DNA of 64,000 nucleotides from positions 112,605-176,604 of the forward strand of contig CAWDXC010000018.1 in assembly GCA_963806155.1 (NCBI GenBank), read 5' to 3'. Below the pieces are notes generated by a model. That model did not search any database, was not told the DNA's origin, and saw only the letters and a list, made by a program, of their open reading frames with translations. The DNA comes from an uncultured Actinomycetes bacterium (GTDB lineage: Bacteria; Actinomycetota; Thermoleophilia; RBG-16-64-13). Position 1 is the stretch's first letter, and each line of letters starts with the position of its first letter. A program made the translations under genes and the position numbers. Positions 24,197 to 46,005 of the stretch are shown piece after piece.

Positions 24197-26905
24197 ATGA
24201 GTACCAACGTCGCCATCCTACGTCCCAAGCTTCGGCCGCCCCGAGTGGGGCCGAACCGACTGGCGAGGCAAAGGCTGCTCGCGCGGTTGGACCAGGGGCT
24301 CACCGGGCCGTTCACCCTTGTGGCAGCTCCGGCGGGCTATGGGAAGACGACGCTGCTCGCCCAGTGGGTCAGCGGGCAAGATCGGCCCTCGGCCTGGCTC
24401 ACCTTGGACGAGGGGGACAACGACCCCGACCTGCTCTTGGAGGAGCTGGTGGCGGCGGTCAGGACTGTGTCTTCCGACTCCTGCCACGGCACCAAATCTC
24501 TGCTCGGCCGGCCCGCCCTTCCGCCGCTCGAGTTGCTGGTCCGGGAGTTCACAAACGACCTCGATGAGCTCGATGCGTTCATCCTGGTGTTGGACGACTT
24601 CCACAACCTCAAAGATTTGCATACCCTCGAGATACTCAGACGCCTGATCTATCAGCCTCCGCAATCGCTACATCTCGTCCTTTCCTCCCGGGCGGATCCG
24701 CTGCTACCGCTCGGCGCTCTACGTGGACGGGGCCTCCTGAACGAGGTGCGGGCGGCCGATCTGCGCTTCAGCTACGAGGAGGCGGTGGAGTATCTGGGGC
24801 ACGCATTCGGCCGTCCTCTGACGGACGCCCAGCTCTCTTCTCTGCTTGAGCGGACCGAGGGTTGGATCGCTGGCCTCCATCTGGCCGCCCTCTCTCTTCT
24901 GGGCCGCGAGGACATCGAGCAAGGCATCCGAGAGTTCGCAGGCAGCGACCGCTACGTCGCCGACTATCTCATGGACGAGCTCTGGGCCCAACTCGATCCG
25001 ACAGTCCGGAGCTACCTCATGGCCACTTCGATCCTCGACCGGCTGTCCGCCCCTCTGTGCCGGGCGGTCCTAGGTGAGGGGGCCATCGACTCCTTCGAGG
25101 GGCGACCGATGCTCGAGTGGCTGGAAGACTCGAACCTCTTCGTCGTCTCGCTGGACGAACGTCGGGAGTGGTTTCGCTACCACCACCTCTTCCGCGACCT
25201 CTTGCGTCGCTCGCTCCATGCTACTTCCTCCCCGAGGGACGTGGCCGCACTCCATATCCAGGCCGCCCGATGGCTGGGTGCCCGCGACCGGGTCGAAGAC
25301 GCTCTCGGCCACTTCCTTAGGGCGGAAAGCCCGGAGTTGGCCGCAGACCTCGTCGAGGCGCACCGCAGGGTCGCAATCGACGGGGAGCGATGGCGCGCTC
25401 TAGAGCGGTGGGTGGGCAAGCTGGGCCCAGACATCGTCGGCGGGCGCCCCTCGCTCGTGTTGATCCATGCCTGGCTGGCGCAACAGCGGGGGGACTATGC
25501 AGAGATGTCTCGCCACTGCCAGCGCGCCGAACAACTACTGGACCTTCGGGACGAGCCGCCTGGTGACGACGAGGCCCTCAGGGGAGAGATCGCCGGGTTG
25601 CGCGCGCAAACCAGCTATTGGCAGGCCGACGGCGAGAAGACCTTGGTCTATTCTCGCCAAGCGCTGAGCAGTCTTCCCCCCGACTATCGCCTCGCTCGGG
25701 CAACGGCCACGCTCTTCGAGGCTGCCGGCCTGCACCTGCTTGGTCAGAACCAAGCCGCTTTCGATGTCTTCCGTCGGGGCTCCTACGGAGAATACGGGAG
25801 AGGTCTCCATCCCCGGGCCATGATCGGGCTGGCCTTGATAGCTTTCGCCACCAGCGACGTCGACTACGCATACCGGGTAGCGAACCTGCTGCTGTCCCAG
25901 GCGATCGACGCTGGCCTGGAGGAGAGTGCCGGCTGGGCGCACTACTTCTTGGGACTGACCGCGTATCAGCGGAACGACCTCTCTGCGGCCGAAGCGCATT
26001 TCAGAGCCATCGACCCGTACGCATCGCACGTCGTCCCGGCCAGACAGAGCTCATATGGCTTGGCCTGGGTACGGCAGGCTCAGGGCAGACCAGACGAGGC
26101 TCTTGAGGCCATGGAGTTGATGGCATCCGTCGTTTCCGATCTCAATCTCCCCTTCGGTCAGGAGGTTCGGCTGCTACGGGCCCGGTTGGCCGCCCTGTCC
26201 GGTCGGCCCATCAGCGAGGTGGCCTTGGCGCGTAGCCTTCTTCCTTCGGAAGGTAACGGACTTCTCCAACTCAATATGTGCCACGAGCTCAGCGCGATCA
26301 GTGCCCTAGCGGTGCTGCTGATGGAGGGGAGCGACGACGACCTTGCTGCTTGCCAAGTGGCGCTGCGACGCCTGCTCGCGAGCGCAGAGACCACCGGCAA
26401 CTCCTTCCGCTCTGTGCAGTGTCTCATCCTGCAGGCGCTCATTCTTGACCGGCAGGACCGGAATTCCGAGGCCCTGGCCTCGCTGGCCCAGGCTGTGGAG
26501 TTGGCGAAGCCCGGTCGTCTCGTCCGGTTGTTCCCCGAGATGGGTGACCGGGTGCATGCGCTACTGCAGGCGCTCCAGGTTCGAGGGGGCAGTGACGCCT
26601 TCTTGGACGAGGTGGTCGCCTCGTTCACGGGGGAGGAGCTTCCGTCCGGCCACGCTTCTCTACCGCACGCGTCGGTCTCCGGCCGGGAATACCCGATCGA
26701 CACCCTTCTGACCAACCGCGAGCTTGATGTGCTGGAACTACTAGACCAACGTCTCAGCAATAAGGAGATCGCGAAGCGGTTGGTCATCTCTCCCGCCACG
26801 GTGAAGCGTCACACCCTCAGCATCTACCGCAAGCTGGGGGTGGGGAGCAGGCGCGAGGCAGCAGCGAAGGCACGGCACGTGGGGATCCTTTCAGGCTCCC
26901 GATAG
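24197..26905 (+). CDS. MalT-like STAND ATPase / LuxR-family transcriptional regulator
   Basis: KLRPP, APAGYGKTTLLAQW, AWLTLDEGDNDP, LVLDDFH, RTEGWIAGL, WFRYHHLFRD, LuxR HTH LTNRELDVL...SNKEIAKRLVISPATVKRH. Confidence 0.95.
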   Translation: MSTNVAILRPKLRPPRVGPNRLARQRLLARLDQGLTGPFTLVAAPAGYGKTTLLAQWVSGQDRPSAWLTLDEGDNDPDLLLEELVAAVRTVSSDSCHGTKSLLGRPALPPLELLVREFTNDLDELDAFILVLDDFHNLKDLHTLEILRRLIYQPPQSLHLVLSSRADPLLPLGALRGRGLLNEVRAADLRFSYEEAVEYLGHAFGRPLTDAQLSSLLERTEGWIAGLHLAALSLLGREDIEQGIREFAGSDRYVADYLMDELWAQLDPTVRSYLMATSILDRLSAPLCRAVLGEGAIDSFEGRPMLEWLEDSNLFVVSLDERREWFRYHHLFRDLLRRSLHATSSPRDVAALHIQAARWLGARDRVEDALGHFLRAESPELAADLVEAHRRVAIDGERWRALERWVGKLGPDIVGGRPSLVLIHAWLAQQRGDYAEMSRHCQRAEQLLDLRDEPPGDDEALRGEIAGLRAQTSYWQADGEKTLVYSRQALSSLPPDYRLARATATLFEAAGLHLLGQNQAAFDVFRRGSYGEYGRGLHPRAMIGLALIAFATSDVDYAYRVANLLLSQAIDAGLEESAGWAHYFLGLTAYQRNDLSAAEAHFRAIDPYASHVVPARQSSYGLAWVRQAQGRPDEALEAMELMASVVSDLNLPFGQEVRLLRARLAALSGRPISEVALARSLLPSEGNGLLQLNMCHELSAISALAVLLMEGSDDDLAACQVALRRLLASAETTGNSFRSVQCLILQALILDRQDRNSEALASLAQAVELAKPGRLVRLFPEMGDRVHALLQALQVRGGSDAFLDEVVASFTGEELPSGHASLPHASVSGREYPIDTLLTNRELDVLELLDQRLSNKEIAKRLVISPATVKRHTLSIYRKLGVGSRREAAAKARHVGILSGSR

Positions 26906-29091: not shown

Positions 29092-29153
29092 GCGACGAAC
29101 AGACGGCGAATGAAATCGCCCGGACTGTCCAAGTGACCAAAGGAGAAACGATC

Positions 29154-30844
29154 ATGAAAGTTGTCATCGTCGGGGGAGTGGCGGGAGGCGCGTCGTGCGC
29201 CGCGCGCCTGCGTCGACTGGACGAAAAGGCCGAGATTCTCTTGCTGGAGCGCGGTCCCTACGTGTCGTATGCCAACTGCGGACTGCCCTACCACATCGGC
29301 GGCGTGATCGAGAAGGAAGAGAGCCTTCTGGTGGCGACGGAACAGACCTTCCGGGCCGTGTTCGCGATCGATTGCCGGACCCGCTGCGAGGTGACCGGCA
29401 TCTCGCCCGAGGCGAAGACCGTGGAGCTCAAGAACCACGAGACCGGCGAGGTCACCACCGAGAAATACGACAAGCTCGTGCTTTCGCCCGGGGCGGCTCC
29501 CATCCGTCCGCCCCTACCCGGGATCGACCTCCCGGGGATCTTCTCGGTGAGGACCGTGCCGGACGCGAGGGAGATCCGGGAGTGGCTCGAACGGGATTCG
29601 AGCGATCTGTCCGTGGAGAACACTTCCGCCGGATTCAAGCCGGTGGGCACAGCCAAGCGGGCGGTGGTGGTCGGCGGCGGATACATCGGCCTCGAGATGG
29701 CGGAGAACCTGGTCCATCGCGGGCTCGAAGTGACGGTCGTCGAGATGCTCGATCAGGTCATGGCCCCGCTCGATCCGGAATGCGCCCGGCTCGTCGAGCG
29801 CCACCTGGAACAGCCACGGCGTCCGTCTCGCGCTGGGTGACGCGGTGGCCGGATTCGAGCAGACCGCCGGCGGCTCGCTCGAGGTTCTCACGAAATCCGG
29901 CAAGGTGCATCCGGCGGACATCGTGATCCTGGCCATCGGCGTGCGTCCGGAGACCGCGCTCGCGAAGGCGGCCGGGCTCGAGATCGGCGAGCGCGGCGGC
30001 ATCCGCGTGGACGAACACATGCGCACGAGCGACCCGGACATCTTCGCCGTCGGCGACGCCGTCGAAGTCAAGGACTACGTCACCGGCGAATGGTCCCTCA
30101 TCCCCCTGGCCGGGCCGGCGAACCGGCAGGGCCGGATCGTGGCCGACGTGATCGCCGGGCGGGACTCCCGCTTCCGCGGCACCCAGGGCACCTCGGTCAT
30201 CGGGATCTTCGGAGCCACGGTCGCCATGACCGGCGCCAACGAGAAGATGCTCGTCCGGCTGGGCGCAGACGGACTTCGAGAAGATCTATCTCTTCCCGAA
30301 TTCGCACGCGGGGTATTACCCGGGCGCCAAGACGATCGTGCTGAAAGTCATCTTCCGCAAGTCCGACGGGCGTCTCCTGGGGGCGCAGGCTCTCGGCCTG
30401 GACGGCGTCGAGAAGCGGATCGATGCCCTGGCCATGGCCATCCAGATGGGCGCCACGGTCTACGACCTGGAAGAGTCCGAACTCTGCTACGCGCCCCCGT
30501 TCGGGAGCGCGAAGGACCCCGTCAACTTCGCGGGGATGGTCGCCGCCGACGTCCTCCGGGGCGACATGCCGCTCGCTCACTGGGCCTCGGTGGACGGGCA
30601 GTTCCTCCTCGACGTGCGCAATCCGGCGGAGCTCGCCGCGGAGCAGGTGGAGGGCGCGGTCAACATACCGCTGCCGCAGCTCCGCGCACGCCTGGGCGAA
30701 CTGCCCCGCGACCGCGAGATCCTGGTCATCTGCCGTTCCGCCCAGCGCGCCTACTACGCGACGCGCATCCTTCTGCAGAACGGGTTCAAAGCCAGAAACC
30801 TCTCCGGAGGCATGATGTCGCGTTCGATGCTCGGGACGAAGTGA
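29154..30844 (+). CDS. CoA-disulfide/persulfide reductase with C-terminal rhodanese (Cdr/Npsr-like); frameshifted
   Basis: GGVAGGASCAARLRRL, SYANCGLPY redox Cys, GGGYIGLE, IFAVGDA, PLAGPANRQGR, YAPPFGSAKDPVN, rhodanese LLDVRN...VICRSAQRAY. Confidence 0.9.
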
Positions 30845-30909
30845 AATGAAAGGTCAATGGATAACCCACGACGCGGCCACTAGCGCAGCGAAGCAAAGGA
30901 GAAGGCAAC

Positions 30910-33329
30910 ATGAGTAAAGACGATGTGAAGACTTCCACGGGTCGGGTGAAGGTCGATACCGCACGCATCGATCGGCTGAAAGAACAACTCAGGAGCACTC
31001 CTGCTGAGGTCGATTTCGAGCGGGTCAGGATCATGGAGGAGGTGTACGATGACACTGCCGGCTACCAGCAGATCATCTGCAGAGCCAAATTCATGGCAAC
31101 CCTGCTCGAGAGGAAAGCGTTGTACATCGACGACAACCTCTTTGTGGGCAGCATGGCAAGCACCGTCAATGGCATCTACACCTATCCGGAATGGCAAGTG
31201 GATTGGATGAAAGAGGAGAATACCGTTGAGAGAAGTGTAAGACCCCGGAAGACCGGAAGGCGAACGAATGGGCGCTCGAATACTGGGACAAGCGTGCGCT
31301 GAAGCCCCGCACGCTTGAGATATTCGAAAGGAAGTATGGTTTTGATCCGCGCCCTTCCTATGCTTCCGGCAATGTCATTAGTTTCTTTGACTGGCCCGGT
31401 GGCGGCGGCAACCTGGACTATCCCCGGGTGTACAGGAATGGGCTTGCCAGCATGATCAAAGAGGTCGAGGAGCGAGAGGCGGCCCTCGAGATGCGGCTGC
31501 CGAATGCCGACAAGTTCGCCTTCTATGAAGCCAGTCTCATTGTCATGAGGGCCTTTATTCGCCTGGCTCACCGTTATGCTGAACTGGCCAGAGAGATGGC
31601 GGCAAAAGAGACGAATCCCGTCCGCAAGCAGGAACTGCTCGACATCGCCGAGATCTGCGAATGGGTGCCCGAGCATCCGGCCCGCAACCTGAGAGAAGCC
31701 ATCCAGTGCCACTTCTTCTGTCACATCGTCTCGGAGATCGAGCAGGTGGGTTGCGGCTATTCTGAGGCTTACCTGGGCCAGAACTTCGAGCCGTTCTATC
31801 AGGCCGACAAGGCTGCCGGTCTGATCGGATATGACGAGGCAGTCTTCATGTTCGAGAACCTCGTCATCAAGCTGAACGAGATCGGCTATTACTATGGCGA
31901 GAAGGTCGCCTTGCAGAACTCTGCCGACCTGGGTCAGAGCATCTCGCTCGGAGGCTATACCGAGGATGGGGATGATGCCACCGCAGAAATGGATTATGTG
32001 ATCCTGGATGCATGCAACTACCTTCACTTGCCACAGCCTCCGCTGACGTGCGTCTACACGGAGAGAATGAGCGGCAAATTCCTGGAAAAGGTCCTGGATG
32101 TGATCGGCACCGGTATCGGCATGCCTCAGTTCGTGAATGGCGATGTGATGGTGAAGCGCGCCTTGAATCTGTTCGCTGACTCCAAGAAGGGCCTCACACT
32201 CGAAAAAGCCAGACGCACCGCTATCGGCGCCTGCGTGGGTTCATACATTCCCTACGAAACAGGTCACCCGGTGGAAGGGCAGCCCAACCTGGGGAAGGTC
32301 ATCGAGTTGACGATGAACGATGGCTTCGATCCCCGCACCAAGCAGCAGGTCGGACCCAAGACCGGGGATCCCGAGACCTTCAAGACCTTCGAAGAACTCT
32401 ACGCGGCATTCCAGAAGCAGATAGATTTCAATGAGGAGGTCCTCCGCCGGGGTGCATGGATCGCCAGCATGCTGTGCGCTGACTTCCTCCCGACTACCTG
32501 GCGCTCGCTCCTGACCGGGGGCTGCATTGAAACCGGCACCGAGGTCTGGAATGGCGGAGCCAATTACTACACAACTGCGCAGATCGTTGTCGGTGGCGTT
32601 GACGCCGCCAACTCGCTGATGGCGGTGAAAAAGCTGGTCTATGATGACAAGAAGATCACCATGGCCGAACTGAAGAAGGCGCTGGCCGCCAACTTCGAGG
32701 GATACGAGAATGTACGCAAGATGTGCTATGAAGCTCCCAAACATGGCAACGACATTCCTGAAGTGAACAAGCTGACTCGTAGGGTGTTCAATAGTATCTA
32801 TGACGCTTTCCAGAAGGTAGATGGCGGCGGCAACTACATCAGCCAGGACATCAAATCAGCGCCGGATGCCTATACCAAGAGCATCCACAACCTGATGGGG
32901 CTGGTGACGGGCGCGCTGCCGAACGGTAAATATGCCGGGGTTGCACTCACCGATGGAAGTCTGTCGGCCATGCCGGGCACCGACGTCAACGGACCTACCG
33001 CGTTGGTGATGTCTGCGGCGAAGAGTCAGGATGCCATCAAGTACACCGCAACGCACATGAACATGAAATTCCCGCCCGATCAACTGAAAACACGCAAGGG
33101 CCGGGATAACGTGCTGAATCTTGTCAAGACCTATTTTGACAATGATGGCTATCACATTCAGTTCAATGTCCTGGACACCGCAATACTCAGGGACGCACAG
33201 AAGCACCCTGAAAACTACCGCGACCTTGTGGTTCGGGTGGCCGGTTTCAGCGCTTTCTTCACCAAACTGGCCCCGGGTGTGCAGGATGAGGTCATTGCTC
33301 GTACCCTGCAGAGTTTCGGCACGAACTGA
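30910..33329 (+). CDS. Glycyl radical enzyme (PFL superfamily) of uncertain specificity; one frameshift near 31235
   Basis: C-terminal HIQFNV..LRDAQKHPENYRDLVVRVAGFSAFF (glycyl radical); Cys loop AIGACVG; CEWVPEHPARNLREAIQ; about 800 aa when joined. Confidence 0.92.
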
Positions 33330-33342
33330 GATTCAACCTGAA

Positions 33343-33377
33343 CCGGTGCGGCGTGGCCCTGCGTCACGCCGCACCGG
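33343..33377 (+). terminator. 13-bp perfect GC stem-loop after the GRE gene, no U-tract
   Basis: CCGGTGCGGCGTG-N9-CACGCCGCACCGG. Confidence 0.6.
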
Positions 33378-33452
33378 ACACCTGCTGATCGCGCGCGACG
33401 CGAAGACGTGCACGATCAGAAGGAAGGTACATCATGATTACGGAAGTAGGTC

Positions 33453-34613
33453 ATGCCAGTCTTCCTGAGACGGATCGCCATCATGGTGGGCGCCGGCTTC
33501 GTTCCCGGCATGAACGCCGTGGTGATGGGCGCGGCCCTGGCTGCGGGCAAACTGGGATGGGAGATCGTCGGCATCCGCGATGGCTTCGACGGGCTGCTGC
33601 ACCCGGATCGCTACCCCGACGGCGGGCTGGTGACCCTCAGCCCCCAACTGGTCGAGAACCTGGATCCGGCCGCCGGGGGCATCCTGGGCCAGTCGGCGCT
33701 GGGTCGATCCGTTTCATGTCCGCACGGTCGACGAAGACGACATGGTCGAGGAAGTGGACATGTCCGACGAGCTGCTGAGAGGGCTGCAGGCGGAGCAGAT
33801 CGATGCGGTGATCTCCGTCGTCGGCGGCCGCGGGCTGAGCATCCTCTACAAGCTCCATCGCAAGGGGCTCAACACGGTGTGCATCCCCCGCTCGATCGAG
33901 AACGACATCGCCGCCACCTCGGTGTCCTTTGGCTTCAACAGCGCCCTCAGCTTCACCATCGAGATGCTCGACCGGGCTCGTCAGGCGGCCCAGTCTGCCC
34001 GCAAGATCGCCGTGGTGGAGGTCCTGGGCGAGCAGGCCGGATGGATGGCGCTGCAGGCCGGCATCGCTGTCGGCGCCGATGCGGTGCTGATTCCCGAGAT
34101 CCCCTGCGACCTGCAGACGGTGGCCGCGCGGTTGAAGGAAAAGATGACACCCAGGCGGCCGTACGGGCTGGTGGTGGTGGCCGAAGGGGCGAAGCTCGGT
34201 CGATGACCCACAAGCCCAGGCAGAAGCCATCCTCGCTCAAGGCTTCCTGTCGCCGCTGGCAACCGGCGAGGCCAGCGACCACGTCATCCAGCGATCGGGC
34301 CAGGCCGCCGAGACCGTGGCCAGCAGGCTGCAACTGCTGATCGCCGAGGAAACCCAGCCACTCGTCCTGGGTCTCTGGGTCAGGGGCGGCGCCCCCACCG
34401 CCGTCGACCGCCAACTGGGGCTGGCCTACGGGGCCGGGGCGGTACGGGCCGCTGAACGCCGGCAAGAACGGGGTGATGGTGGCTTTCGTGCCGCCCGACA
34501 TCAAGTTCGTGCCGCTGGCGGAGGCGATCAACAAGGTCAGGACCGTGCCCGCGGACAGCGAATTCGTGCAGATCGCCCGCTCGCTCGGCATCAGCCTGGG
34601 GAGGGAACTATGA
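33453..34613 (+). CDS. Phosphofructokinase (PfkA)-fold protein with substituted catalytic motifs; frameshifted
   Basis: RIAIMVGAGFVPGMNAVV, GIRDGFDGLL, VVGGRG, IPRSIENDI, SFGFNSAL, VVEVLGEQAGWMAL, ADAVLIPEIP, VVVAEGA, LGLWVRGGAPTAVDRQLG. Confidence 0.85.
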
Positions 34614-35550
34614 ACACCCCATCCACCAATCAATCCGGCTCTGACCGGCATCGTTCTCAATATCCAGCGCTATTGCAGCCATGACGGTCCGGGCATCCGC
34701 ACCAACGTCTTCCTCAAGGGCTGCTCGCTGCGCTGCAAATGGTGCTCCAATCCCGAAAGCATCCACCCCAAGCCGGAGCTGGCCTACGACCCCCAACATG
34801 TGCATCGGCAAGAAGGCATGCGGCCTCTGTCTGAAGCCGCCCTTCCCGAAGGCGCTTTCTACGTCGTCGAGGGCGCCGACGACAAGGTCAGGGTCAACTG
34901 GGATCTGGCCACGGACGTCGACGAGGCGTTGGTCTCGCTCTGCCCGACCAACGCGCTGGACATGTACGGCAAGACGGATGACCGTCGACGAGGTGCTGGA
35001 CGAGGTGGAGAAGGACGCTTCCTTCTACCGCAATTCCGGCGGCGGCATGACCCTGAGCGGCGGCGAGTGCCAGCTGCAGCCCGACTTCGCCGCGGCCCTG
35101 CTGGCAGGGCGCCCACGAGCGCGGCATCAACACGGCCATCGAAACGGCCTTCAACGTGCCCTGGTCTTTCTGCGAAAAGGTGCTGCCCCACGTCGATACG
35201 GTGCTCCACGACCACAAGCTGACCATCCCGGAGCGGCACAAGAAGTGGACCGGCGTGAGCAACGAGCGCGATCCTGGCGAACATCAAGAAGGCCTACGAG
35301 ACCTTTCCCGACATCGACTTCATCGCCCGCACGCCGCTGATTCCCGGCGTCAACGCCGACGAGGAGCACATCCGGGCGGTCCTGGCGTTCATCCGCCCCT
35401 ACAAGAACGTGATCGACTACGAGCTCTTGCCCTATCACCGCTTTGGCCTGGGCAAGTACGAGAGCCTGGGCGTGGTGTATGAGCTGGACGACTACAAGAC
35501 GCCGTCCGACGAGCTGGTCGCGCACCTGCAGGCCAAGGAGGGCGGGATGA
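34610..35550 (+). CDS. Glycyl-radical activating enzyme (radical SAM); frameshifted
   Basis: [35 protein letters not shown] (CxxxCxxC), [36 protein letters not shown]; ATGA-coupled to the PFK-like gene. Confidence 0.9.
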
Positions 35551-36855
35551 ACACTGACAACCTGATTACGGCCGAAGAATTGGCCGCGCGCCTCAAGATG
35601 GCCGCCGAAGGCATGAAGAAGAAGCCCGGCTTGATGAAGTCCACCGTCGGCTACATGGAACTGGTCCACAAGTACGTGGAGCGGATCGTCACGGCCAAGG
35701 AGAAGGGCAAGTTGGTGGTCGACCCACGGCACCCAGCAGCCCCTCGAGATCTACGAGGCGATGGACGTGGTGGGCGTCTTCAACGAGTTCTGGGGCGTCA
35801 TCTCGGACGTCGTGAAGGTGGAGTCCGTCCCCGAGGCCTTGAGCATCTCGCCGTCGACCGGCACGCCGAAGGAGGTCTGCTCGTTCTTCCGGAACATGGA
35901 CGGCCTGATGCACGCCGGCAAGTGGCCCAAGACGGACTGTCTTTCTCTACGCCACCTCCTCGTGCGACAACGTCAAGGCCTTCCACACGCTGGGCCGGCG
36001 CTACGGCATCCCCGACTTCGGCATGGAGCGGCCCTACCACCCGTTCACGCCCCAGGCGATGGAGCACTGGAAGAACGAGCACAAGCGGCTGATCGCCTTC
36101 CTGGAGGAGCAGACCGGAAAGAAGCTGGACTACGACCGCCTGAAGGAGACGGTGCGCCTGTCCTACCGTCTCACCGAGCTCAGCCCTCGAGATCGACGAT
36201 CTCGTCGCCCATGTCCCGACGCCCATGTCCGCCGAATGCTTCGGCGGCGTGCTGCTGGCGCTGCGCCTGATGTGCGGGACCCAGGAGGCCGTGGACTTCC
36301 TGGAATGCGCTGAAGGCGGAGCTCCAGGAGCGCGTGGACAACGGCATCGCCGCCGTCAAGCCGGAGCGCTTCCGGGTGATGTGGAGCAGCTTCACCCCGT
36401 TCTGGGACACCGGCGCTCATGGCCTTCATGCAGCAGAAGTACGGCGCGGTCTCGGTGTGCGAGGTGCTGTCAGCGCTGGCGCGGGGAGGCGAACTGGCTG
36501 CTCGATCCGGACGATCCGCTGGGCAACCTCGCCTACCGGACCCAGCTCGCACCCGGCAACTGCCAGTACTCGCCCTCGATCGACTGGGCCGCGCAGGTCG
36601 TCGAGCAGGCCCGCAAGTTCAAGGCGGACGGGGCGATCTTCAACAACAACTGGGGCTGCAAGCAGGCTGCGGGCCTCGGCCCGATCGTCAGGGACGAGCT
36701 GCTGCGTCACATGCAACGTGCCGACGCTCACGCTCAACGTGGACGTGATCGACGCCACCTTCACCAGCCGGGCCGAGGTCGAAGCCCAGCTGGACAGCTT
36801 CTTCGAGATGATCGAGGCGAGCAAGGCCTACCAGGAAAGGAGGGCAATCGCATGA
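35547..36855 (+). CDS. 2-hydroxyacyl-CoA dehydratase / class I benzoyl-CoA reductase subunit (O/BcrB-like); frameshifted
   Basis: AAGGAGG RBS; EVCSF, SCDNVK, LIAFLEEQTGKKLDYDRLKE, KADGAIFNNNWGCKQ, PTLTLNVDVID, QLDSFFEMI. Confidence 0.8.
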
Positions 36856-38005
36856 ACACGCCACTGCAAAGCTCTGAACGAAATGCAAAGGCTGACCTCT
36901 CCGTTCCCGGAGAGCGTCACCGTCAAGGACTGGAAGGCCGCGGGCCAAGAAGGTGATCGGCTGGGTCAACCCCTACGTGCCGGAGGAGATCATCTACGCG
37001 GCCGGGATGCTGCCCTTCCAGGTCACCGGCAACAACGAGCCGGTCCAGATGCAGGGGGCCGAGGCCTACATCCTCGTCCAACTCCTGCTCCTACATCCGC
37101 ACCTGCTGGCAGCTGCAGCTCGACGGCAAGTACGGCTTCCTGGACGGCCTGGTCTCCTCCAGCATGTGCGACCAGGACAAGCGGCTGTACAGCGTGTGGG
37201 AGTACTACCAGAAGCTGCCCTACATGGACATCCTCTACGCGCCGCGCAAGCGCGACGAGGAGGCGGTCAAGCTGTACCTGGCCGATCTCGAGGACTTCAG
37301 GGACCGGCTCTCCCAGTACGGGCTGAGGCGGATCCCCGACCGGGACATCGCCGACGCGATCCGGGTCTACAACCGGGGACGCGAGCTCATGCACCAGCTC
37401 TACGAGCTGCGCAAGCGCGATCGCCCGCCGGTCACCGGGGCCGAGGCCCTGGAAGTGAGCAAGGCGGCCGCGCGCCTGCCGCGCGAGCGGTTCAACGAGC
37501 TGATGGAGCAACTGCTCGACGAGATCCAGCGCAGCGGGCGCGAGATCAAGAAGTCCCGGCGCCTGATGGTCATCGGCAACGACCTTCACAACGCCACCCA
37601 GATCGCCGCGCTCGAGTCGCTGGACGCGGTGGTGGTCGTCGACGAGATGAACTGCGGCATCCGCTACGCCTGGGGACAGGTGGACACCGCAGCTGCCGCC
37701 GATGGAGGCGCTGGCCCGCTACTACGTGCTGGGCCGTCCGGTCGACATGCACACCTGGAATTCCGACGGGCGACTCGAGTTCATCGGCGAGATGGCCGAG
37801 CAGTACAAGGTCGACGGGATCGTGTCCGAGATCGTGCGCTTCTGCACCTACAACGGCTGGGACAAGTTCGATCTCAAGAAGCAGATGGAAGCAGCGCGGC
37901 ATCCCGATCCTGGAGATCGACCTGGAGTACGGCCACCCGGCGGGAGCGCAGGTGAAGATCCGCGCCGAGGCGTTCATGGAGATGCTGGAAAGCCGGGCCA
38001 GTTAG
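36852..38005 (+). CDS. 2-hydroxyacyl-CoA dehydratase / class I benzoyl-CoA reductase subunit (N/BcrC-like); frameshifted
   Basis: IGWVNPYVPEEIIYAAGMLP, SCSYIRTC, MCDQ, VVVVDEMNCGIRY, YKVDGIVSEIVRFCTY, GIPILEIDLEY..AQVKIRAEAFMEML. Confidence 0.82.
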
Positions 38006-38034
38006 CCCGGCGGCCACAGAAAGGAGAACAGAGT

Positions 38035-38837
38035 ATGGCTGTCGTTGGAATTGACCTGGGATCGCAGTCCACCAAGGTGGTGATCCTGGAAGGCGACGTG
38101 ATCGTCGGCGGCGCCTCGCTGCAGACCGGGGAATCGGCGGAGACCGAGGCCCGGATGGCGGTGCAGGAGGCTCTGCGGCAGACGGGCCTCAAGCGCGAGG
38201 ACCTGAAGGCCGCGGTGGCGACCGGCACCCTCAGCGTGCCCGTCACCGCGGCCGTGCAGCGAAGCAACGCTCGGCGGCGAGTTGCATCGCCACGGGAGCC
38301 TACTTCCGCTTTCCCCAGGCGCGGACGGTCCTGTATATCGGCGCCGACAGCTCGATGGCCATCCGGATGTCGGCCGATGGCCAGGTCGAGGACTCGGTGA
38401 AGAACGAGCGCTGCGCGGTGTCCTCGGGGGCGCTGCTGGACATCGTGAGCCGCATGCTGGAAATCCCGGTGGAGGAGTTGGGCCCGCTGTCGCTGCAGGC
38501 CACCGCCCCGCAGACAGTGTCCAGCCGGTGCGTGGTCTTCGCCGAGGGCGAGATCCTGTCCTTCATCCACAAGGACCCGCCGGTCCCCGTTCCCGATGTG
38601 CTCGCGGGCGTGAACCAGTGCATCGCCGACGGCCTGTGGGGGATGGTGCAGAAGGTGGGCGTGCCGTCCGAGCTGCTGCTGTGCGGCGGGGTGGCCCGGA
38701 ATGTGGGCATCGTCAAGGCGATCGAAGCCCACCTGGGCAAGCCGGCGCTGGTGCCGCCGCAGCCGCAGTACGTGCGGGCACTGGGCGCGGCCGTGTTCGC
38801 CCGCCAGCTCCAGCAGGAAGGAGGTGCGTCATGCTGA
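38035..38837 (+). CDS. BadF/BadG/BcrA/BcrD-type (ASKHA) activator subunit P-like, degenerate ATP motifs; frameshifted
   Basis: GIDLGSQSTKVVIL, KNERCAVSSG, SSRCVVFAEGE, CGGVARNVG, ALGAA. Confidence 0.82.
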
Positions 38838-39691
38838 CGATGGGAATCGACATCGGTTCGCGCAGTTCCAAGTGCGTCATCCTCGACGACGGGCAGTTGC
38901 TGACCTACGGCAGCATCGAGACCGGCCCCAACATCGTCAAGACGGCCCAGGCGGTGGTGGAGGCGGCCGTCCACCGCCGCACCGGCCTGTGGGGCGAGTA
39001 CCGGATGCCGTTGCCCGACGTGAAGGTCGACCATCTGAAGATCGAGGACATGGCCTGCATCGTGTCGACAGGCTACGGACGCGCCGTCGTGCCCTTTGCC
39101 CATCGCGCCATCACCGAGATCAGCTGCCACTGCCGCGGAGCGCAGTGGTTCGTGCCCGGGGTCTCCACGGTCCTCGACGTCGGCGGGCAGGACAGCAAGG
39201 GCATCCGGGTCGGTGCGAAGGGCGAGGTCGCCGACTTCGTGATGAACGACAAGTGCGCCGGCGGCACCGGTCGCTTCATGGAGATCGTCGCGGAGGTGCT
39301 GCAGGTTCCCCTGTCCGAGATCGGTCCGCTGTCGCTGCAGAGCACGAAAGTCCTGCCGTTCAGCACGACCTGCGCGGCCTTCGGCCGGGGGGCGGCGGTC
39401 GCGATGCTGAAGGAAGGCGAGCGCAAGGAGGACATCCTGGCCGGGCTGCACGAGGCGATCGCCACGCGGGTCACGGCACTGGTCAGGAAGGTCGGCATCG
39501 CGGACAAGTTCGTGATCACCGGCGGCATCGGCAGGAATGTCGGGCTGGTGAGCAAGATCGAAGAGAGGCTCGACGGGTTGAAGGTCACCCTGCCGCAGGA
39601 ACCGATGATCGTCGGGGCCGTGGGGGCAGCCCTGTTCGCCCTCGACCGGGCCCGGAAGAAGAACGCTGATAAAGGAGCCGAAAAGCTTACC
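38831..39691 (+). CDS. BadF/BadG/BcrA/BcrD-type (ASKHA) activator subunit Q-like
   Basis: GIDIGSRSSK, STGYGR, TEISCH, LDVGGQDSK, MNDKCAGGTGRFME, STTCAAF, TGGIGRNVG, GAVGAALFA; as sequenced it reads through into the rhodanese remnant. Confidence 0.88.
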
Positions 39692-39859
39692 ATGAAAGCA
39701 AACGAGTTACTCAAACGCATCGAGGCCAAAACCGCGCCGGTCATCATTGACCCGCGCAGCGAGATCGAATTCAAGAAAGGCCACATACCGGGCGCCATCA
39801 ATGCCCTCGAGTTCGATATAGCAACGCAAACAGAGGAGACCATCGGTGGACACCGCTAA
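39692..39859 (+). pseudogene. Truncated rhodanese-domain remnant
   Basis: MKANELLKRI..VIIDPRSEIEFKKGHIPGAIN, then ends before the active-site Cys loop; overlaps the next start. Confidence 0.55.
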
Positions 39860-41009
39860 CAGTGGAAAAGATATCTACGAACGACTGGTGGATGCGCTGG
39901 ACGCACTTCCCAGCGGTTTCGCCAGAACGCCTTCAGGGGTGGAAACGAAGCTGATCAAAATGGCGTTCACGCCCGAGGAGGTCTCGCTTGCCGGCCAACT
40001 GAGCCGCACCCCCGAGACTGCTGCTGAGATCGCGCAGCGGGCCGGTCTTGACGAGACCCAGGCAACGGCGATACTCGAGAGCTTGGTGCCAAGACGTCTG
40101 GTTCGCCTGGACTCGCCTGGGATGGCCGCTCCCGGCCTGACCGCTCCGGTCGAGGGCGTGAGGAAATACCGGCTGGGCCCCTTTCTGGTCGGCTGGTACG
40201 AAGCCAGTATGCGGCTGCTGGACAAGGAGTTTGCCGAACTCTTCGAACAGTATGTGAGTGAGGGTGGAGGTGAGCGGATCTTCTCGCCGCGCCCTGGTGT
40301 GCTTGGCGTCGTTCCGGTACGGGGCTCGCTCAAGCCTGAGTTGATGGAGCTGATGGAGCCCCACCTTGATATAGACGCCCATTTCCAACGGCACGAACGC
40401 TTTCTCGTGATTGACTGCGTGTGTAAGAGGGAGAAGGCCACATTGCATGGCCACAGTTGCGAGCAGCCTATCAGGCGTTGTGGCTTTGTAGGGCTGCCGC
40501 CGCAGACTCCGCTTGGGCAAACCGTGCTTGACCGGCAGGATGCGTCAAAGCTTCTTGCTGAGCTCGGGCAGATGGGGCACGTTCAGCTCGCCTTCTATGG
40601 GTTCACCATGGGAGCGGACTCCCCTCAGTTTGTAGGAACGTGTAACTGCTGCTCGTGCTGCTGTGGGATATTTCAGGGCCAGAAGATGTCGGCCATAGAG
40701 GAAGGGCCGCAGAGATCGAATTACCGTGCCATCGTCGCTGCAGACAAATGTATCTCCTGCGGCGTGTGCATCGAGCGTTGCCCGGTGGACGCCATCGCTG
40801 ATGATGGCATGTCGGCGAAGGTGGAACGGGCAAAGTGCATCGGGTGTGGAGTGTGCGTGATCGGATGCGCATCTGATGCGATCGAGCTCGAGCCGGTATC
40901 TGCCGAGGAGTGGTTCCACGTTCCTTCCAGCTTTGCGGACTGGGAAGAAAGGCGCCTGCAGAATCTGGCTGGCGGAGGTAGTAACGGGCGCGACAGTGAC
41001 GACGTGTAA
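39846..41009 (+). CDS. 4Fe-4S dicluster protein with N-terminal wHTH-like region
   Basis: FTPEEVSLAGQL..ETAAEIAQRAG; DCVCK, TCNCCSCCCG, CISCGVCIERCP, CIGCGVCVIGC. Confidence 0.88.
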   Translation: MDTANSGKDIYERLVDALDALPSGFARTPSGVETKLIKMAFTPEEVSLAGQLSRTPETAAEIAQRAGLDETQATAILESLVPRRLVRLDSPGMAAPGLTAPVEGVRKYRLGPFLVGWYEASMRLLDKEFAELFEQYVSEGGGERIFSPRPGVLGVVPVRGSLKPELMELMEPHLDIDAHFQRHERFLVIDCVCKREKATLHGHSCEQPIRRCGFVGLPPQTPLGQTVLDRQDASKLLAELGQMGHVQLAFYGFTMGADSPQFVGTCNCCSCCCGIFQGQKMSAIEEGPQRSNYRAIVAADKCISCGVCIERCPVDAIADDGMSAKVERAKCIGCGVCVIGCASDAIELEPVSAEEWFHVPSSFADWEERRLQNLAGGGSNGRDSDDV

Positions 41010-41068: not shown

Positions 41069-41494
41069 ATGTTCGATCTTCCACTGGAGTACGCTCTGAT
41101 CGAATTCGAGGACGCCAAGTTCTCGGGCAAGATCATCCCCGAGCTCCTCGATCTGGCCGCGCGCGGCATCGTGCGATTCGTAGACATCGTCTTCATCGAG
41201 AAACAGGAGGACGGCAGCACGCGCACTCTCGAACTCAACGATCTCGACCCCGAGACCTACGAGATGTTCGTCCCCCTGGGCGAGCACGTCTCCAACTTCT
41301 TCACGAACGACGACCTGCAGATCGCGGCGAGCAAGCTCCCCGATAAGTCGGCGGCGGTGCTCTTCCTATGGGAAAACCTGTGGGTCGCCGATCTCCGCAA
41401 AGCCATCGTTGATGCCGGTGGCCGGCTGGTGGAGCGCGCACAGATCGCTCCTGAGGTACTCGAGCAGTTCGAGCAGGAACTCGCCGCCGAATAG
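41069..41494 (+). CDS. DUF6325-family protein
   Basis: PLEYALIEFEDAKFSGKIIPELLDL..GIVRFVDIVFIEK; LWENLW; GGRLV. Confidence 0.8.
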   Translation: MFDLPLEYALIEFEDAKFSGKIIPELLDLAARGIVRFVDIVFIEKQEDGSTRTLELNDLDPETYEMFVPLGEHVSNFFTNDDLQIAASKLPDKSAAVLFLWENLWVADLRKAIVDAGGRLVERAQIAPEVLEQFEQELAAE

Positions 41495-41550
41495 CGCGAG
41501 ACTCCGAAGCTCACCGTCCGTCAAGTCATCTCTTCAGAGGAGGCAGCGTC

Positions 41551-41793
41551 ATGGCACCTAGAATAGGACCGAATCCCCCGGGACCCGTCGGCGGAGTTGG
41601 CCGCGGACCGAACCCGCCCGGCCCCATCGGCGGGGTTGGCGGCGGTATCAACCCCCCCGGCCCAGTGGGCGGGGTCGGCGGCGGAATCAATCCCCCGGGA
41701 CCTGTCGGCGGGGTTGGCCGCGGACCGAACCCCCCTGGCCCGGTCGGCGGGGTCGGCGGTGGACGCCGCAACGGCGTCGGGCTGATGCGATAA
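41551..41793 (+). CDS. 80-aa Gly/Pro-repeat microprotein
   Basis: GAGGAGG RBS 7 nt before ATG; five 13-aa units G(P/I)NPPGP(V/I)GGVG(R/G); co-oriented with its neighbours. Confidence 0.65.
   Translation: MAPRIGPNPPGPVGGVGRGPNPPGPIGGVGGGINPPGPVGGVGGGINPPGPVGGVGRGPNPPGPVGGVGGGRRNGVGLMR
41566..41760 (+). repeat. 39-bp tandem repeat x5 (coding)
   Basis: Units such as GGACCGAATCCCCCGGGACCCGTCGGCGGAGTTGGCCGC that vary mainly at third codon positions. Confidence 0.9.
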
Positions 41794-41922
41794 CCGGCAC
41801 GGCAACGTCGGCGTCGGTGAGCCGCTCCGCTCACTGTCGCCGTGATTGATAGTGGCGAGTTTGCGGTATATGGTCAACGAGGCTTCAAGCGAATTGGTGC
41901 CCACACAACAGAGGAGAAACCC

Positions 41923-42471: not shown

Positions 42472-42593
42472 GCAGAGGCTCCGACAGTAGCGGTTGCTGG
42501 ACGCGCCCCGGCCGGCCTCAGCGAGAGGCCGGCCGGGGCGCCGCTCTTTCTTGACCGTCGCGGGGCCGCGCACGGGAACCCCGGGACGTGCGG

Positions 42594-43369: not shown

Positions 43370-44546
43370 ATGGGTACGATGACTATCAAGGGCAAGACGA
43401 TGCGTTCCGTGGATGTGGACTGGAACGAGTTCTACTACACCAACTGCCCCCTCGTGTCCCCCAGCAACGTCGACCAGGAGATCGGCTGGGTGAAGGAAGA
43501 GTTCAAGAAGATCGGCATCGCATACAAGTTCCTTCGCTCCACCCGCGAGAACGACTGGTACCCGCACTACGTCCACAACCTCGACAACCTGATGCGCTAT
43601 GGAGGCTGCTTCCCGGCCATCCACGTCCAAGCCGACATCCGCCGCACCCGGCTCATCGGGACGACGCATGTGTACGAAGGCGGCTGCATGCTGGTGCGCG
43701 CCCGGGACCCCATCTACCGCATGAAGGACCTGAAGGGCAAGAAGATCGGCCTCTCCAAGAGCCTGAACATCATCAAGAACGACTGGTGGCGCGTCCAGGA
43801 GGAACAGGGCATCGAGCTGATGCTCATGCTCAACGACATGACCCGCGATGACGTGGAGATCGTGGAGTTCCCCTACCCGGACGACTGGTACGACAACCCC
43901 GCGATGCTCGCCCCCATGGAGAACCCGTCGGAGCTGTGGCTCAAGCGCGACCACAAGCACGACCTGGCCTTCCGCCCGCTGGAGACGGCGCTGCTGAGGG
44001 GCGTCGTGGATGCGATCTACACCCAGACCGGACCCTTCCAGCATAGCCAGGAGCAGACGGGCAAGATCAAGGCCATCGAGAACCTGGCCAACTATCCGGA
44101 CTGGACCCTGCAGGGAGCCAATGTCCCGGCCACCTGCACGGTCAGCGATGTGGCGTGCGAGGAGCACCCCGAGGTGGTCGTCACCATTCTGAAGGGCCTC
44201 ATCAAGGTGGGGCGCTGGGCCAACGAGCACAAGCACGCCGCCGCGGCGATCCTCGACAAGCAGACCTTCTACCTGGACGTCGAGGACACCTACCGGAGCA
44301 TCCTGAACGTCGACCTGGTGCCCAGCCTGTCGCCCTATAACCTGGAAGCCCTTCAGATCAACAAGGACTTCATGCTGAGCCACGGCTACATCGAGCACGA
44401 CTTCGACGTGTTCGAGTGGGCCGCGCCGGAATTCATGGAGAAGGCGGCGGCAGGAGCTGCTCGAGGAAGAGTGGAAGAAGCGCAGCATGGCCAGGCTTCC
44501 CCAGCCGACCACGCTGGAGGAGGCCATGTCGGCGCGGCTCGGGTAG
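43370..44546 (+). CDS. DszB-like (SsuA/THI5-fold) protein, putative desulfinase; C-terminal frameshift
   Basis: YYTNCPLVS, HYVHNL, RYGGCFP, DLKGKKIGL, ALLRGVVDAIY, KDFMLSHGYIEHDFDVFEWAAPEF; no signal peptide. Confidence 0.7.
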
Positions 44547-44579
44547 TTGGTTCACTCCACTCTAGAAGGAGATGACTAC

Positions 44580-45083
44580 GTGACCGATCATCAAGTCCCC
44601 GAGAAGAAGCAGACGGTCCTGGGCCTCTACGTGACGGCCCAAGAAGCCTACGAGATGTGGGAGGTGGACCCCGACGGCGTCAACATCCTCGACGTCCGCA
44701 TTCCCGAGGAGTACCTGTTCGTCGGCCATCCGAAGATGGCGAGGAACATCCCCCTCCTCTTCGTGAGGTACGCCTGGGATGCTGCGAAGAACCAGCCGGC
44801 TGTGCGGCCGAACCCCGATTTCGCCTCCGCCGTCATGAAGGCCTTCGGTCCCGGCGACACGCTGCTGGTCATGTGCCGCTCCGGTGGCCGCAGCGCGCTG
44901 GCCGTCAACGGCCTGGCCAAAGCGGGCTTCACCAGGGCCTACAACATCATCGACGGTTTCGAGGGCGACAAGGTAGACGATCCGGGCAGCGCGTACCACG
45001 GCAAGCGGATGCGGAACGGCTGGAAGAACTCCGGGTCGCCGTGGACCTACGACGTCGATCCAGAGCTGCTTGTGGCTCGCTGA
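44580..45083 (+). CDS. Rhodanese-like sulfurtransferase
   Basis: ILDVRIPEEYLFVGHP, VMCRSGGRSA, YNIIDGFEG, NGWKNSGSPW. Confidence 0.88.
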   Translation: MTDHQVPEKKQTVLGLYVTAQEAYEMWEVDPDGVNILDVRIPEEYLFVGHPKMARNIPLLFVRYAWDAAKNQPAVRPNPDFASAVMKAFGPGDTLLVMCRSGGRSALAVNGLAKAGFTRAYNIIDGFEGDKVDDPGSAYHGKRMRNGWKNSGSPWTYDVDPELLVAR

Positions 45084-45120: not shown

Positions 45121-46005
45121 ATGACGATCGAGTCGTTCTTCTCCGCCGTCGCCGCCTTGTCCGGTCTGCTGTTCGTCGTCGCCAGCATGCTGGGGACTGG
45201 GCTCAGCCTGACTGTGAGTCAGATCGTCCGACCGCTGAAGAACGTCCCCTTGGTGATCCTGGCGTTGGTCGCGAACTTCGTGCTTGTGCCGCTGCTCGCC
45301 TGGGGCATCACCAGCGCGATCACTCTCGACGAGCCTCTCAAGATCGGGCTGATCGTGCTGTCGACCGTGGCCGGCGCGCCCTTCTTGGTAAAGGAGATCC
45401 AGGCTGCCAAGGGGGACCTGGCTCTGGGCGTCGGCCTGATGTTTCTGATGATGATAGTGACCATCGCCTACGTGCCCCTCGTTCTGCCGCGGCTTCTTTC
45501 CGGCGTCGAGGTCGACGCGTGGGCGATCGCGAAGTCGCTGATCGTGACCATGCTCGTACCGATCGTGATAGGCCTGCTCTGGAAGTCGCATTCAGGGGAC
45601 AGCGCGAAGAACTGGGCGCCGATCATGAACAAGATCTCCGGTATCTCGCTGATCCTCTTGTTGGTGACCGGACTGGGCTTGAACATATCGAACATAATCA
45701 GCTTGATCGGTTCGCGTGGCTTCCTCGCTGTGATCCTCTTTGTCGTCGGGTCGTTCGTGATCGGGTTCGTGCTGGGCGGCCGTAAGGCGGCCACCCGCAG
45801 CGTCTTGGGTCTGGGTACGGCGCAGCGCAACGTGGCGGCCGCTATTCTCGTAACCAGTTTGAATTTCTCTGGAACGATGACGCTTCCGTACGTGCTGGTG
45901 GCCGCCATCCTCTTGCCGGTGATCTTGATCCCGGTGGCGCGACTGCTCGGCAAACGTGGCGGGGCGTCAGTCGCCGCAGGCGCCGGCAGCCAGGATCCGC
46001 AGTAG
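45121..46005 (+). CDS. Bile acid:sodium symporter (SBF)-family transporter
   Basis: SMLGTGLSL, ANFVLVPLLAW, AGAPF..AKGD, LGTAQRNVAAA. Confidence 0.85.
   Translation: MTIESFFSAVAALSGLLFVVASMLGTGLSLTVSQIVRPLKNVPLVILALVANFVLVPLLAWGITSAITLDEPLKIGLIVLSTVAGAPFLVKEIQAAKGDLALGVGLMFLMMIVTIAYVPLVLPRLLSGVEVDAWAIAKSLIVTMLVPIVIGLLWKSHSGDSAKNWAPIMNKISGISLILLLVTGLGLNISNIISLIGSRGFLAVILFVVGSFVIGFVLGGRKAATRSVLGLGTAQRNVAAAILVTSLNFSGTMTLPYVLVAAILLPVILIPVARLLGKRGGASVAAGAGSQDPQ

Follow-up and report, generated by a model that had tools for sequence, protein, structure and literature searches.

Genes of the run

We describe a 10-kb run of genes at positions 30910-41009 on the plus strand of a window of 64,000 nt, taken from the genome of an uncultured Actinomycetes bacterium that we call G000. 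The run encodes a glycyl radical enzyme (GRE), a protein with the fold of 6-phosphofructokinase (PFK), a radical-SAM activase, two HGD-D subunits of the benzoyl-CoA reductase (BCR) type, two BcrAD/BadFG-type ATPases, the remnant of a rhodanese gene and an Fe-S protein. Our preferred reading, to which we give about an even chance of being right, is that the run consists of two anaerobic radical-enzyme units, each conserved on its own and horizontally spread, that would have their roles within a sulfur-related island covering about 18-46 kb of the window. Genes were called by scanning the open pieces with Pfam and NCBIfam and by comparison with the intact orthologues of a congener, G003, of the same genus.

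The GRE gene (30910..33329, about 805 aa) carries PFL-like and Gly_radical domains and is open in two pieces, 30910-31302 and 31428-33329, the frame being lost between about 31232 and about 31421. Next come the PFK-fold gene (33453..34684), with degenerate kinase motifs, several frameshifts and PF00365 on three pieces, and the GRE activase (34681..35546, with pieces to 35560), recognized from NCBIfam matches to its pieces and cut near its 3' end at about 35535. Subunit A (35547..~36855), with an AAGGAGG just 5' of it, and subunit B (~36852..38005), in which three cluster cysteines are conserved, are both frameshifted; the intact genes of the congener encode 434 and 382 aa, in keeping with the sizes of about 435 and 385 aa estimated in the initial annotation, which had been made from the sequence alone. 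The start of subunit B had been placed there at 36953; it lies near 36852. ATPase 1 (~38035..38837, 268 aa in the congener) shows a 7-nt gap relative to the congener, and ATPase 2 (~38828..39670, 281 aa in the congener) is distinct from it. The rhodanese stump (39692..39859) is the 5' part of a small rhodanese gene and covers only positions 2-36 of the Rhodanese profile (35 residues). The run closes with the Fe-S protein (39846..41009), which has a weak winged-helix N-terminus, six invariant central cysteines and two 4Fe-4S ferredoxin motifs. Every gene in the initial list is thereby confirmed on the plus strand.

The same annotation had described a single co-oriented, coupled run. The PFK-fold and activase genes overlap by 4 nt, subunits A and B overlap as they do in the congener, and the rhodanese stump overlaps the start of the Fe-S gene; these overlaps of starts and stops support translational coupling. 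The frame of ATPase 2 continues into the stump without a break. Co-orientation and overlaps stand, but the run is broken by about 25 frame-shifting insertions and deletions (indels).

A conserved triad of GRE, PFK-like and activase genes

We assembled a set of GRE loci from the best 80 of 199 encoding stretches, scanned with one genome per species. With cluster representatives as queries, a PFK-like gene is found after the GRE in 79 of the 80 loci and an activase gene in 76; counted as pieces, the figures are 78-79 and 72-76. In the 38 loci in which all three genes are intact, their order is fixed. The three genes are a near-invariant, conserved triad, and the conservation that the initial annotation had singled out for checking is borne out. 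The triad is often followed by a multi-cluster Fe-S protein (an Fe-S gene is present in 38-39 of the 80 loci), a second PFK-like gene and metK.

The GRE itself belongs to a tight group of proteins of about 800-830 aa, the best 120 of which are 78-92% identical; the window piece has a median identity of 82% to the 80 loci. The whole unit of GRE, PFK-like protein and activase is 73-92% identical across these loci, which come from many phyla: their titles name Chloroflexia, Bacteroidota, Acidobacteriota, Verrucomicrobiota, Planctomycetota, several proteobacterial classes, Nitrospiraceae, Gemmatimonadales and Hydrogenedentes, among others. By comparison, the RpoB of G000 is only 52-60% identical to the RpoB of five GRE-bearing genomes. 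GRE identity in excess of RpoB identity points to exchange of the unit across phyla, to an unusual constraint on it, or to both. Two loci belong to cultured organisms, Flavihumibacter profundi KCTC 62290 (L012) and Eudoraea adriatica DSM 19308 (L062). In the Bacteroidota loci (L003, L006, L008, L028 and others), pairs of a second PFK-like gene and an Fe-S gene occur once or twice after the activase, and upstream there are several LuxR-type genes of 250 aa and conserved proteins of 95 and 180 aa that match no family.

Sequence features of the GRE

The GRE has the features of its superfamily (PF02901, 431 bits; PF01228, 102 bits; the glycyl motif RVAGFSAFF, of the RVxG form). Its best solved relative is HypD (PDB 6vxc/6vxe; E 6e-120 over the full length), with which it shares the domains, the glycyl motif and the position of the catalytic cysteine. 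A full-length relative scores 464 bits against NCBIfam cut-offs that run from 678 (PFL2-3 subfamily) to 1150, and none is reached, which agrees with the description of the enzyme as atypical in the initial annotation.

The residues around the catalytic cysteine depart from those of HypD. The cysteine loop reads G-A-C-V-G-S, so that C-V-G replaces C-X-E, and this is invariant in the window and in 15 relatives; there is Gly at Cys+2 and Val at Cys+13. The beta1 loop is an invariant Gly-rich W-P-G-G-G-G-N, and an invariant second cysteine lies in G-C-G-Y-S-E-A-Y. In the alignment with HypD, R156 is replaced by Pro and H160 by Gly, both within the WPGGGGN loop, D278 by the invariant Cys of G-C-G-Y-S-E-A-Y and Y450 by Gln. 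The equivalent of IslA R678 appears to be Ala, mapped at the level of sequence through the HypD alignment and the correspondences between the IslA sulfonate site and HypD given in PMC8473560. Judged from its scores and residues, the GRE is not a member of a CHARACTERISED class. From the C-V-G loop, the WPGGGGN loop, the second cysteine and the other replacements we infer a chemistry other than Glu-assisted elimination, possibly one using two thiols and an anionic substrate held on backbone amides.

Several known identities were considered for the GRE and rejected. Formate-lyases carry two adjacent cysteines on the Cys loop; here there is a single one (A-C-V-G), and TIGR01255, for pyruvate and ketoacid formate-lyases, gives 79 bits against a cut-off of 994. 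For the 1,2-eliminases and isomerases (GD, PD, HypD, CutC, IslA, HpsG, YbiW, PflD, HplG), all of which retain C-X-E according to the available excerpts of a 2026 GRE review (PMC13450708), the GRE has C-V-G and no Glu two residues after the cysteine. As a C-S lyase like IslA, IseG or HpsG it would be expected to keep the Arg/Gln/Arg sulfonate site, whose positions correspond, by the indirect mapping through HypD and PMC8473560, to P162, G166 and A653. As an arylacetate decarboxylase (HPAD, IAD, PhdB/PAD, AAD) it scores 427 bits with IAD and 347 with HPAD against cut-offs of 1100-1150, and the loop residues differ: the same excerpts of PMC13450708 give C-X-E for HPAD and IAD, and C-X-Q with an essential Trp495 for PhdB. 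The GRE has neither C-X-Q nor a Trp at Cys+13, and it is these published residues, not an alignment, that set it apart from PhdB/PAD. A second GRE of G000, on contig C3 at about 18335-20714 and outside the window, is 33% identical to the window GRE, unrelated to it and split in two frames.

The proteins beside the GRE

The PFK-like protein has about 385 aa and matches PF00365 over nearly its full length (211 bits, profile positions 1-276 of 277). It shares with PfkA (PDB 1zxx, 1pfk) the full-length fold and the RGG of the sugar site, and it partly keeps the TIDND-like segment, as SIDND or SIEND. It differs from solved PFKs, in the consensus of 30 orthologues, by changes of GGD to GAG, of D103 to Q or R, of R171 to E or variable residues and of H249 to P, positions that we take to be the nucleotide and Mg loop (GGD) and the catalytic residues of PfkA. 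It differs also in its constant place between GRE and activase, and its NCBIfam scores of 224-242 bits remain below the PFK cut-offs of 253-544. The term pseudo-PFK used in the initial annotation fits the protein in the window and the orthologue consensus alike. A third gene beside GRE and activase also occurs in systems with accessory subunits (HPAD gamma; BSS beta and gamma; MASS beta, gamma and delta); those are small HiPIP- or rubredoxin-like Fe proteins in the available excerpts of PMC13450708, whereas here the constant third gene encodes a putative partner of PFK fold, of about 385 aa and with no metal motif. We also considered fusion of PFK and activase as evidence for their interaction and discarded it as too infrequent and too prone to error: the two are one open reading frame (ORF) in L051, L033 and L070 only (three of six long ORFs), all of them long-read metagenome-assembled genomes (MAGs). 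A search of longer proteins returned one fused PFK-activase protein.

The activase scores 318 bits with PFLE_PFLC (cut-off 174) and has extra clusters. The best NCBIfam match of an orthologue is the HpsH type, at 351 bits and under the cut-off of 430. This resemblance to HpsH and the sulfur-related gene context bring the system close to IslA/IseG/HpsG with HpsH; it differs from them in the replaced sulfonate residues and the missing Glu of C-X-E described above.

A BCR-like reductase module

The two HGD-D genes and two ATPase genes form a module of their own. We collected 78 metagenome loci, 23 of them of at least 6 kb, in which the order HGDa-HGDb-ATPase1-ATPase2 recurs. The HGD-D subunits are its most conserved parts, the best 120 relatives of subunit B (HGDb) being 79-100% identical. 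Of the module loci, 24 reach far enough past ATPase 2 to show what follows, and 16 of these have a small rhodanese gene within 400 bp 3' of it.

The closest solved relatives of subunit B are BzdN (E 2e-46), HadC, DCCP and MbdN. Its C78, C105 and C330 are invariant and align with cysteines of BzdN, HadC and DCCP, and the C-x6-C pattern of HadC is matched as well. Because the two ATPases are different, the layout is BCR-like: class I BCRs of the Bzd/Mbd type (PDB 8s02, 9g87) likewise combine a pair of HGD-D subunits with two unlike BcrAD ATPases in a single operon, and the initial annotation had seen two distinct activator subunits of this kind correctly. Scores against this type are 84-171 bits, with cut-offs of about 420-490. 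HadC (142 bits) and DCCP (112 bits) are nevertheless nearly as close to subunit B, and the context of class I BCRs is benzoyl-CoA pathway genes, while that of the module is CoADR-rhodanese, small rhodanese and DszB-like genes. On profile scores, the family assignment stops at the BCR/HAD/DCCP superfamily, where HAD is 2-hydroxyacyl-CoA dehydratase. Identity as a class I BCR proper is rejected with 84-195 bits against Bcr/Bzd equivalog cut-offs of 313-578 in NCBIfam and with no ring-pathway genes among the window ORFs scanned. A 2-hydroxyacyl-CoA dehydratase such as HadBC with HadI is of the same superfamily and has a homodimeric activator; here there are two different ATPase genes, and the scores of 80 bits with HadB and 137 with HadC are far below cut-offs of 700-750. 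DCCP, whose double-cubane model is the best NCBIfam match of subunit B (171 bits, cut-off 350), is a single HGD-D-type protein and is set aside too, the module having a heterodimeric pair of different HGD-D subunits.

G000 carries several HAD/BCR-type systems. Further HGD-D/BcrAD-type genes are found on contigs C11 (219886-222741), C15 (388378-390295) and C8 (265574-266335 and 530151-531614), at 25-40% identity to those of the window. In G003, an ORF of 160 aa that matches no family separates subunit B from ATPase 1 (L087, 12115-12597); in L163, an ORF 90% identical to it stands between activase and subunit A, and the window has none.

How the two units are joined

The two units are mostly found apart. 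The module is near the GRE in one of the 80 GRE loci (L015, lacking the ATPases), and a module orthologue was not found in any of the ten GRE-bearing genomes searched. Conversely, none of the 23 long module loci has GRE, PFK, activase or Fe-S genes, and among all 78 module loci a link to GRE, MetK or activase is seen in three, all short (L158, L160, L163). L015 is from a deltaproteobacterial MAG and has the order FeS-HGDa-HGDb-CoADR; its genome encodes 12 BcrAD ATPases, none more than 43% identical to ATPase 2. In the congener, a second copy of the cluster has the order GRE-HGDa-HGDb-orf160-ATP1-ATP2-PFK-activase-PFK2-FeS-FeS. There the module lies between GRE and PFK gene, and in the window between activase and Fe-S gene. 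The link thus recurs and is not obligate. The join extends beyond this window, to the congener, one deltaproteobacterial MAG and three metagenome contigs, and is not the singular event that would have undone the initial proposal; the coupling of two radical chemistries made in that proposal holds only as an occasional, recurring association, and an obligate one does not agree with these counts.

G003 has two islands, L087 (contig C9) and L089 (contig C8), one with the module and one without. Both continue with rhodanese, DszB-like, nitroreductase-ferredoxin and enoyl-CoA-hydratase-like genes, and the GRE on C8 is split by indels. Among 31 relatives, G000 and G003 alone carry the clusters. A phylum-wide search for the module hit one of 301 genomes, G000 itself, and has no power on co-occurrence.

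Both ends of the module in the window carry marks of the join. On the left, the activase resembles its relatives up to 35535; beyond that point, other metagenomes have contigs that run on into the canonical tail. This tail is nearly invariant in 30 orthologues and is lost in the window copy, which reads K-E-G-G and then, in frame and with no stop between, the ATG of subunit A behind AAGGAGG. On the right, the rhodanese stump, which is up to 90% identical to the gene that follows ATPase 2 in module loci and is cut at the start of the Fe-S gene, is, by its sequence, the scar of the right end of a cassette. The Fe-S gene directly follows the activase in several Acidobacteriota-type loci. Given this arrangement and the state of the two ends, the simplest history is that the module was inserted as a cassette between activase and Fe-S gene, so that the activase lost its tail and part of the rhodanese gene next to the module came along as the stump. 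The right junction (39729-39926) is contained in a contig of run X4 that is 93% alike. An apparent joint in X2 from 35519 to 40355, with a side of 24 letters and landing inside the Fe-S gene, was given no weight.

Frameshifts

The approximately 25 frame-shifting indels are mostly single extra bases, dense in 33.4-38.0 kb and present also in the upstream CoADR gene. At eight sites (34975, 35938, 36182, 36415, 36470, 36945, 37076 and 37687), short contigs from four other metagenomes are without the extra base, at the site or a few bases from it and, for several sites, in only part of the depth. These contigs come from relatives, and their depths were not used for ranking. Elsewhere in G000, rpoB is one open frame of 1253 codons. 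Mismatches to the congener fall at third codon positions in 49-52% of cases in the broken genes and 57-64% in the intact ones. Since these extra bases are absent from the contigs of other metagenomes, rpoB is intact and the third-position bias persists, we take most of the frameshifts to be errors in the consensus of a long-read bin. Coverage by long ORFs is uninformative as a measure of frameshift load in this genome of 65% G+C.

Gene neighbourhood

The neighbours of the two units overlap. Among the 80 GRE loci there are DszB-like genes in 44, CoADR-rhodanese in 44, SBF transporters in 39, SulP in 32, sigma54 PAS/GAF activators in 29, rhodanese in 22, GH63-like genes in 22 and MetK in 14. Among the 23 long module loci there are CoADR in 12, DszB-like genes in 11, SBF in 10, DUF202 in 8 and rhodanese in 5. 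Common to both are CoADR-rhodanese, the DszB-like desulfinase, rhodaneses, and SulP and SBF transporters, and the window holds the whole neighbour set at about 18.1-46.0 kb. In the subset of window ORFs that was scanned there is no CoA ligase or transferase, dienoyl-CoA hydratase or ring hydrolase. With shared neighbours that are sulfur-related and no aryl-CoA genes seen, the context points to anoxic sulfur handling and not to aromatic degradation, and it gives no support to the aromatic or aryl-CoA substrate that had been suggested for the run.

Several of these neighbours flank the run on the plus strand. Upstream, at 29133..30849, is a gene for a fusion of CoA-disulfide reductase and rhodanese (CoADR-Rhd), frameshifted in the assembly and 78-85% identical to the cluster representative, which has Pyr_redox_2 and Rhodanese domains and scores 472 bits as CoA-disulfide reductase. 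Farther upstream (24197..26905), a MalT-like STAND/LuxR regulator of 902 aa is 61% identical to a 902-aa protein of the congener, which scores 378 bits with MalT in NCBIfam, and is likely the regulator of the island. Downstream are a DUF6325 protein (41069..41494), also found 3' of both congener clusters, and a terminator-like hairpin with a 17-bp stem (42503..42541), the only strong one downstream of the run; in the scan for promoters and terminators the overall counts were not above those of shuffled sequence. A DszB-like cytoplasmic protein of the desulfinase/SsuA fold (43370..44575, 70% identical to the cluster representative), a single-domain rhodanese (44547..45083) and an SBF-family transporter (45121..46005) complete the set.

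The DszB-like representative (about 400 aa) has as its only PDB matches DszB, the 2'-hydroxybiphenyl-2-sulfinate desulfinase (PDB 2de2), with a weak alignment of two short stretches (E 1.5e-9); in NCBIfam it gives a partial match to SsuA_fam. The NCP cysteine, a His and the Arg of R-[FY]-G-G align, presumably the catalytic residues of DszB, and the window copy keeps NCP, PHY and RYGG. The neighbour differs from DszB in sitting in anaerobic gene contexts.

Other parts of the window hold further genes. GH13-like and GH63/MGH1-like glycosidases lie on the minus strand at 18104-22456, fragmented by frame changes (GH63-like genes are those counted above in 22 of the 80 loci). An ORF of P-P-T-P-P-T-G-P-G-G repeats at 41526-41834 (minus strand) is probably an antisense artefact of a G+C-rich region. 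An ORF of 828 aa at 47070-49556 has two domains, one of a short-chain dehydrogenase and one of an ERG4/ERG24-like membrane reductase. An intact catalase (49740-51203, 640 bits) lies 9 kb downstream of the oxygen-sensitive radical enzymes and suggests an aerotolerant or facultative host.

Interpretation

Under our preferred reading, the activase would install a glycyl radical on the GRE using S-adenosylmethionine and an electron, possibly from the Fe-S protein. On the G-A-C-V-G loop, the thiyl radical might then act jointly with the invariant second cysteine, which takes the place of the catalytic Asp of HypD, and the substrate would be a small phospho- or sulfo-anion bound by the Gly-rich WPGGGGN loop. 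The PFK-like protein would be no kinase but a non-catalytic partner, regulatory or presenting a ligand. The module would provide ATP-driven injection of low-potential electrons into a recalcitrant, probably organosulfur, substrate. As an optional companion and not an obligate one, it may share the anoxic sulfur programme of the GRE with the transporters, CoADR-rhodanese and the DszB-like desulfinase. A bolder form of this proposal is that the GRE with its pseudo-PFK, the BCR-like reductase and the DszB-like desulfinase make up an undescribed anaerobic route for abundant organosulfur compounds, on an island spread among at least 10 phylum-level groups in wetland, sediment and soil; we regard it as improbable. 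One possibility within it is that the GRE acts on a sulfo-sugar or a phospho/sulfo metabolite and the PFK-derived protein binds a look-alike of fructose-6-phosphate; another is an ATP-coupled reduction of sulfonate to sulfinate, from which the desulfinase then releases sulfite.

Several observations count against the preferred reading. The sulfur theme is read from the gene neighbourhood alone, and the neighbours are heterogeneous, including also GH63-like and GH13-like glycosidases, Zn-ADH, nitroreductase, glutamate dehydrogenase and catalase, so the island may be a set of genes co-regulated under anoxia that share no pathway. Judged by sequence alignment through HypD, the GRE appears to be without the Arg/Gln/Arg sulfonate site of known C-S lyases, and the weak winged-helix matches of the Fe-S protein suit a regulator as well as an electron donor. 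None of the mapped short contigs of relatives was seen to cross the left junction at 35535. The broken genes have a somewhat lower third-position bias, and the loss of the activase tail together with the many frameshifts could mean that the copy is decaying rather than working.

The last of these points leads to the explanation in which the two units have no metabolic link: they would share a mobile, co-regulated anoxia or stress island, with an insertion that was neutral or damaging and a copy now in decay. The mixed neighbour sets agree with this, as do the recurring regulators (sigma54 PAS/GAF activators in 29 of the 80 loci, LuxR-type and MalT-like genes), the lost activase tail, the indels of 33.4-38.0 kb, and the excess of GRE over RpoB identity, which fits island transfer. 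We consider it unlikely but of some weight, since the module has been placed independently within an otherwise fixed order of GRE, PFK, activase and Fe-S genes in two congeners and other lineages, the extra bases are mostly insertions that are absent from other metagenomes and resemble consensus errors, codon-position bias persists, and a good Shine-Dalgarno sequence precedes subunit A. If the dense indels around the join were taken instead as marks of an assembly chimera in a long-read metagenome bin, the two paralogous islands of the congener would show what might confuse an assembler, and the unbridged position 35535 would be accounted for. A chimera is very improbable, however, because the GRE, PFK, HGD and FeS genes are single-copy in G000 and the island order differs in several places from both congener islands, so that it is no simple hybrid of C8 and C9; in addition the X4 contig bridges the right junction, and the joins are gene-precise, with a ribosome-binding site.

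The initial annotation had seen in the GRE and the BCR-like reductase two steps of one pathway for an aromatic or otherwise inert substrate, for example arylacetate decarboxylation or a fumarate-type addition followed by ATP-dependent aryl-CoA reduction. The units are indeed co-oriented and translationally coupled in the window, the module is embedded in a GRE cluster in at least three arrangements, suggesting selection for linkage, and its two distinct ATPases and the closeness of subunit B to BzdN are what a class I BCR would have. Set against this are the one GRE locus in 80 with the module nearby, the ten GRE genomes in which it was not found and the 23 long module loci free of GRE genes, together with BCR equivalog scores of 91-171 bits against cut-offs of 420-490, the lack of ring-pathway genes among the scanned ORFs, and a C-V-G loop where the excerpts of PMC13450708 have C-X-Q with Trp495 in PhdB and C-X-E in HPAD and IAD. 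We think it improbable that the two are steps of one such pathway. HAD/BCR-family activator ATPases inject low-potential electrons, and the module could thus be an ATP-driven electron source for the GRE system, reducing the activase cluster or re-reducing GRE cysteines in hosts without a suitable ferredoxin or flavodoxin. Its position beside the activase (the window and L163) or beside the GRE (G003 and L158) would suit such a role; an electron source could do without the two HGD-D subunits, yet no part of the module is more conserved, and most module loci are without a GRE as most GRE genomes are without the module, so this explanation has very little probability for us.

Novelty and significance

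In the literature searched, neither a GRE accompanied by a PFK-like protein nor this set of reductase and desulfinase came up in any paper, in line with the initial statement that no operon of this kind had been characterized. The available excerpts of PMC13450708 do not mention a kinase-like partner, rhodanese, Acidobacteria or Chloroflexi. The triad of GRE, pseudo-PFK and activase and the hyper-conserved set of reductase, rhodanese and desulfinase are a more interesting object than the coupling of the two units. For annotation, the genes should not be named formate C-acetyltransferase, HypD, 6-phosphofructokinase or benzoyl-CoA reductase.

The most difficult bond cleavages of anaerobic life are the work of GREs and enzymes of the BCR/HAD type, and every subfamily newly assigned has brought a new reaction. 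Wetland, sediment and soil metagenomes are rich in the GRE subfamily described here, whose conservation across phyla exceeds that of RpoB. Its triad is a concrete target in which a reaction new to GREs and an accessory subunit of a new kind may be found, and two cultured carriers, Flavihumibacter profundi and Eudoraea adriatica, are available for genetics. The reductase module and its desulfinase-like neighbour point to unexplored anaerobic sulfur chemistry.

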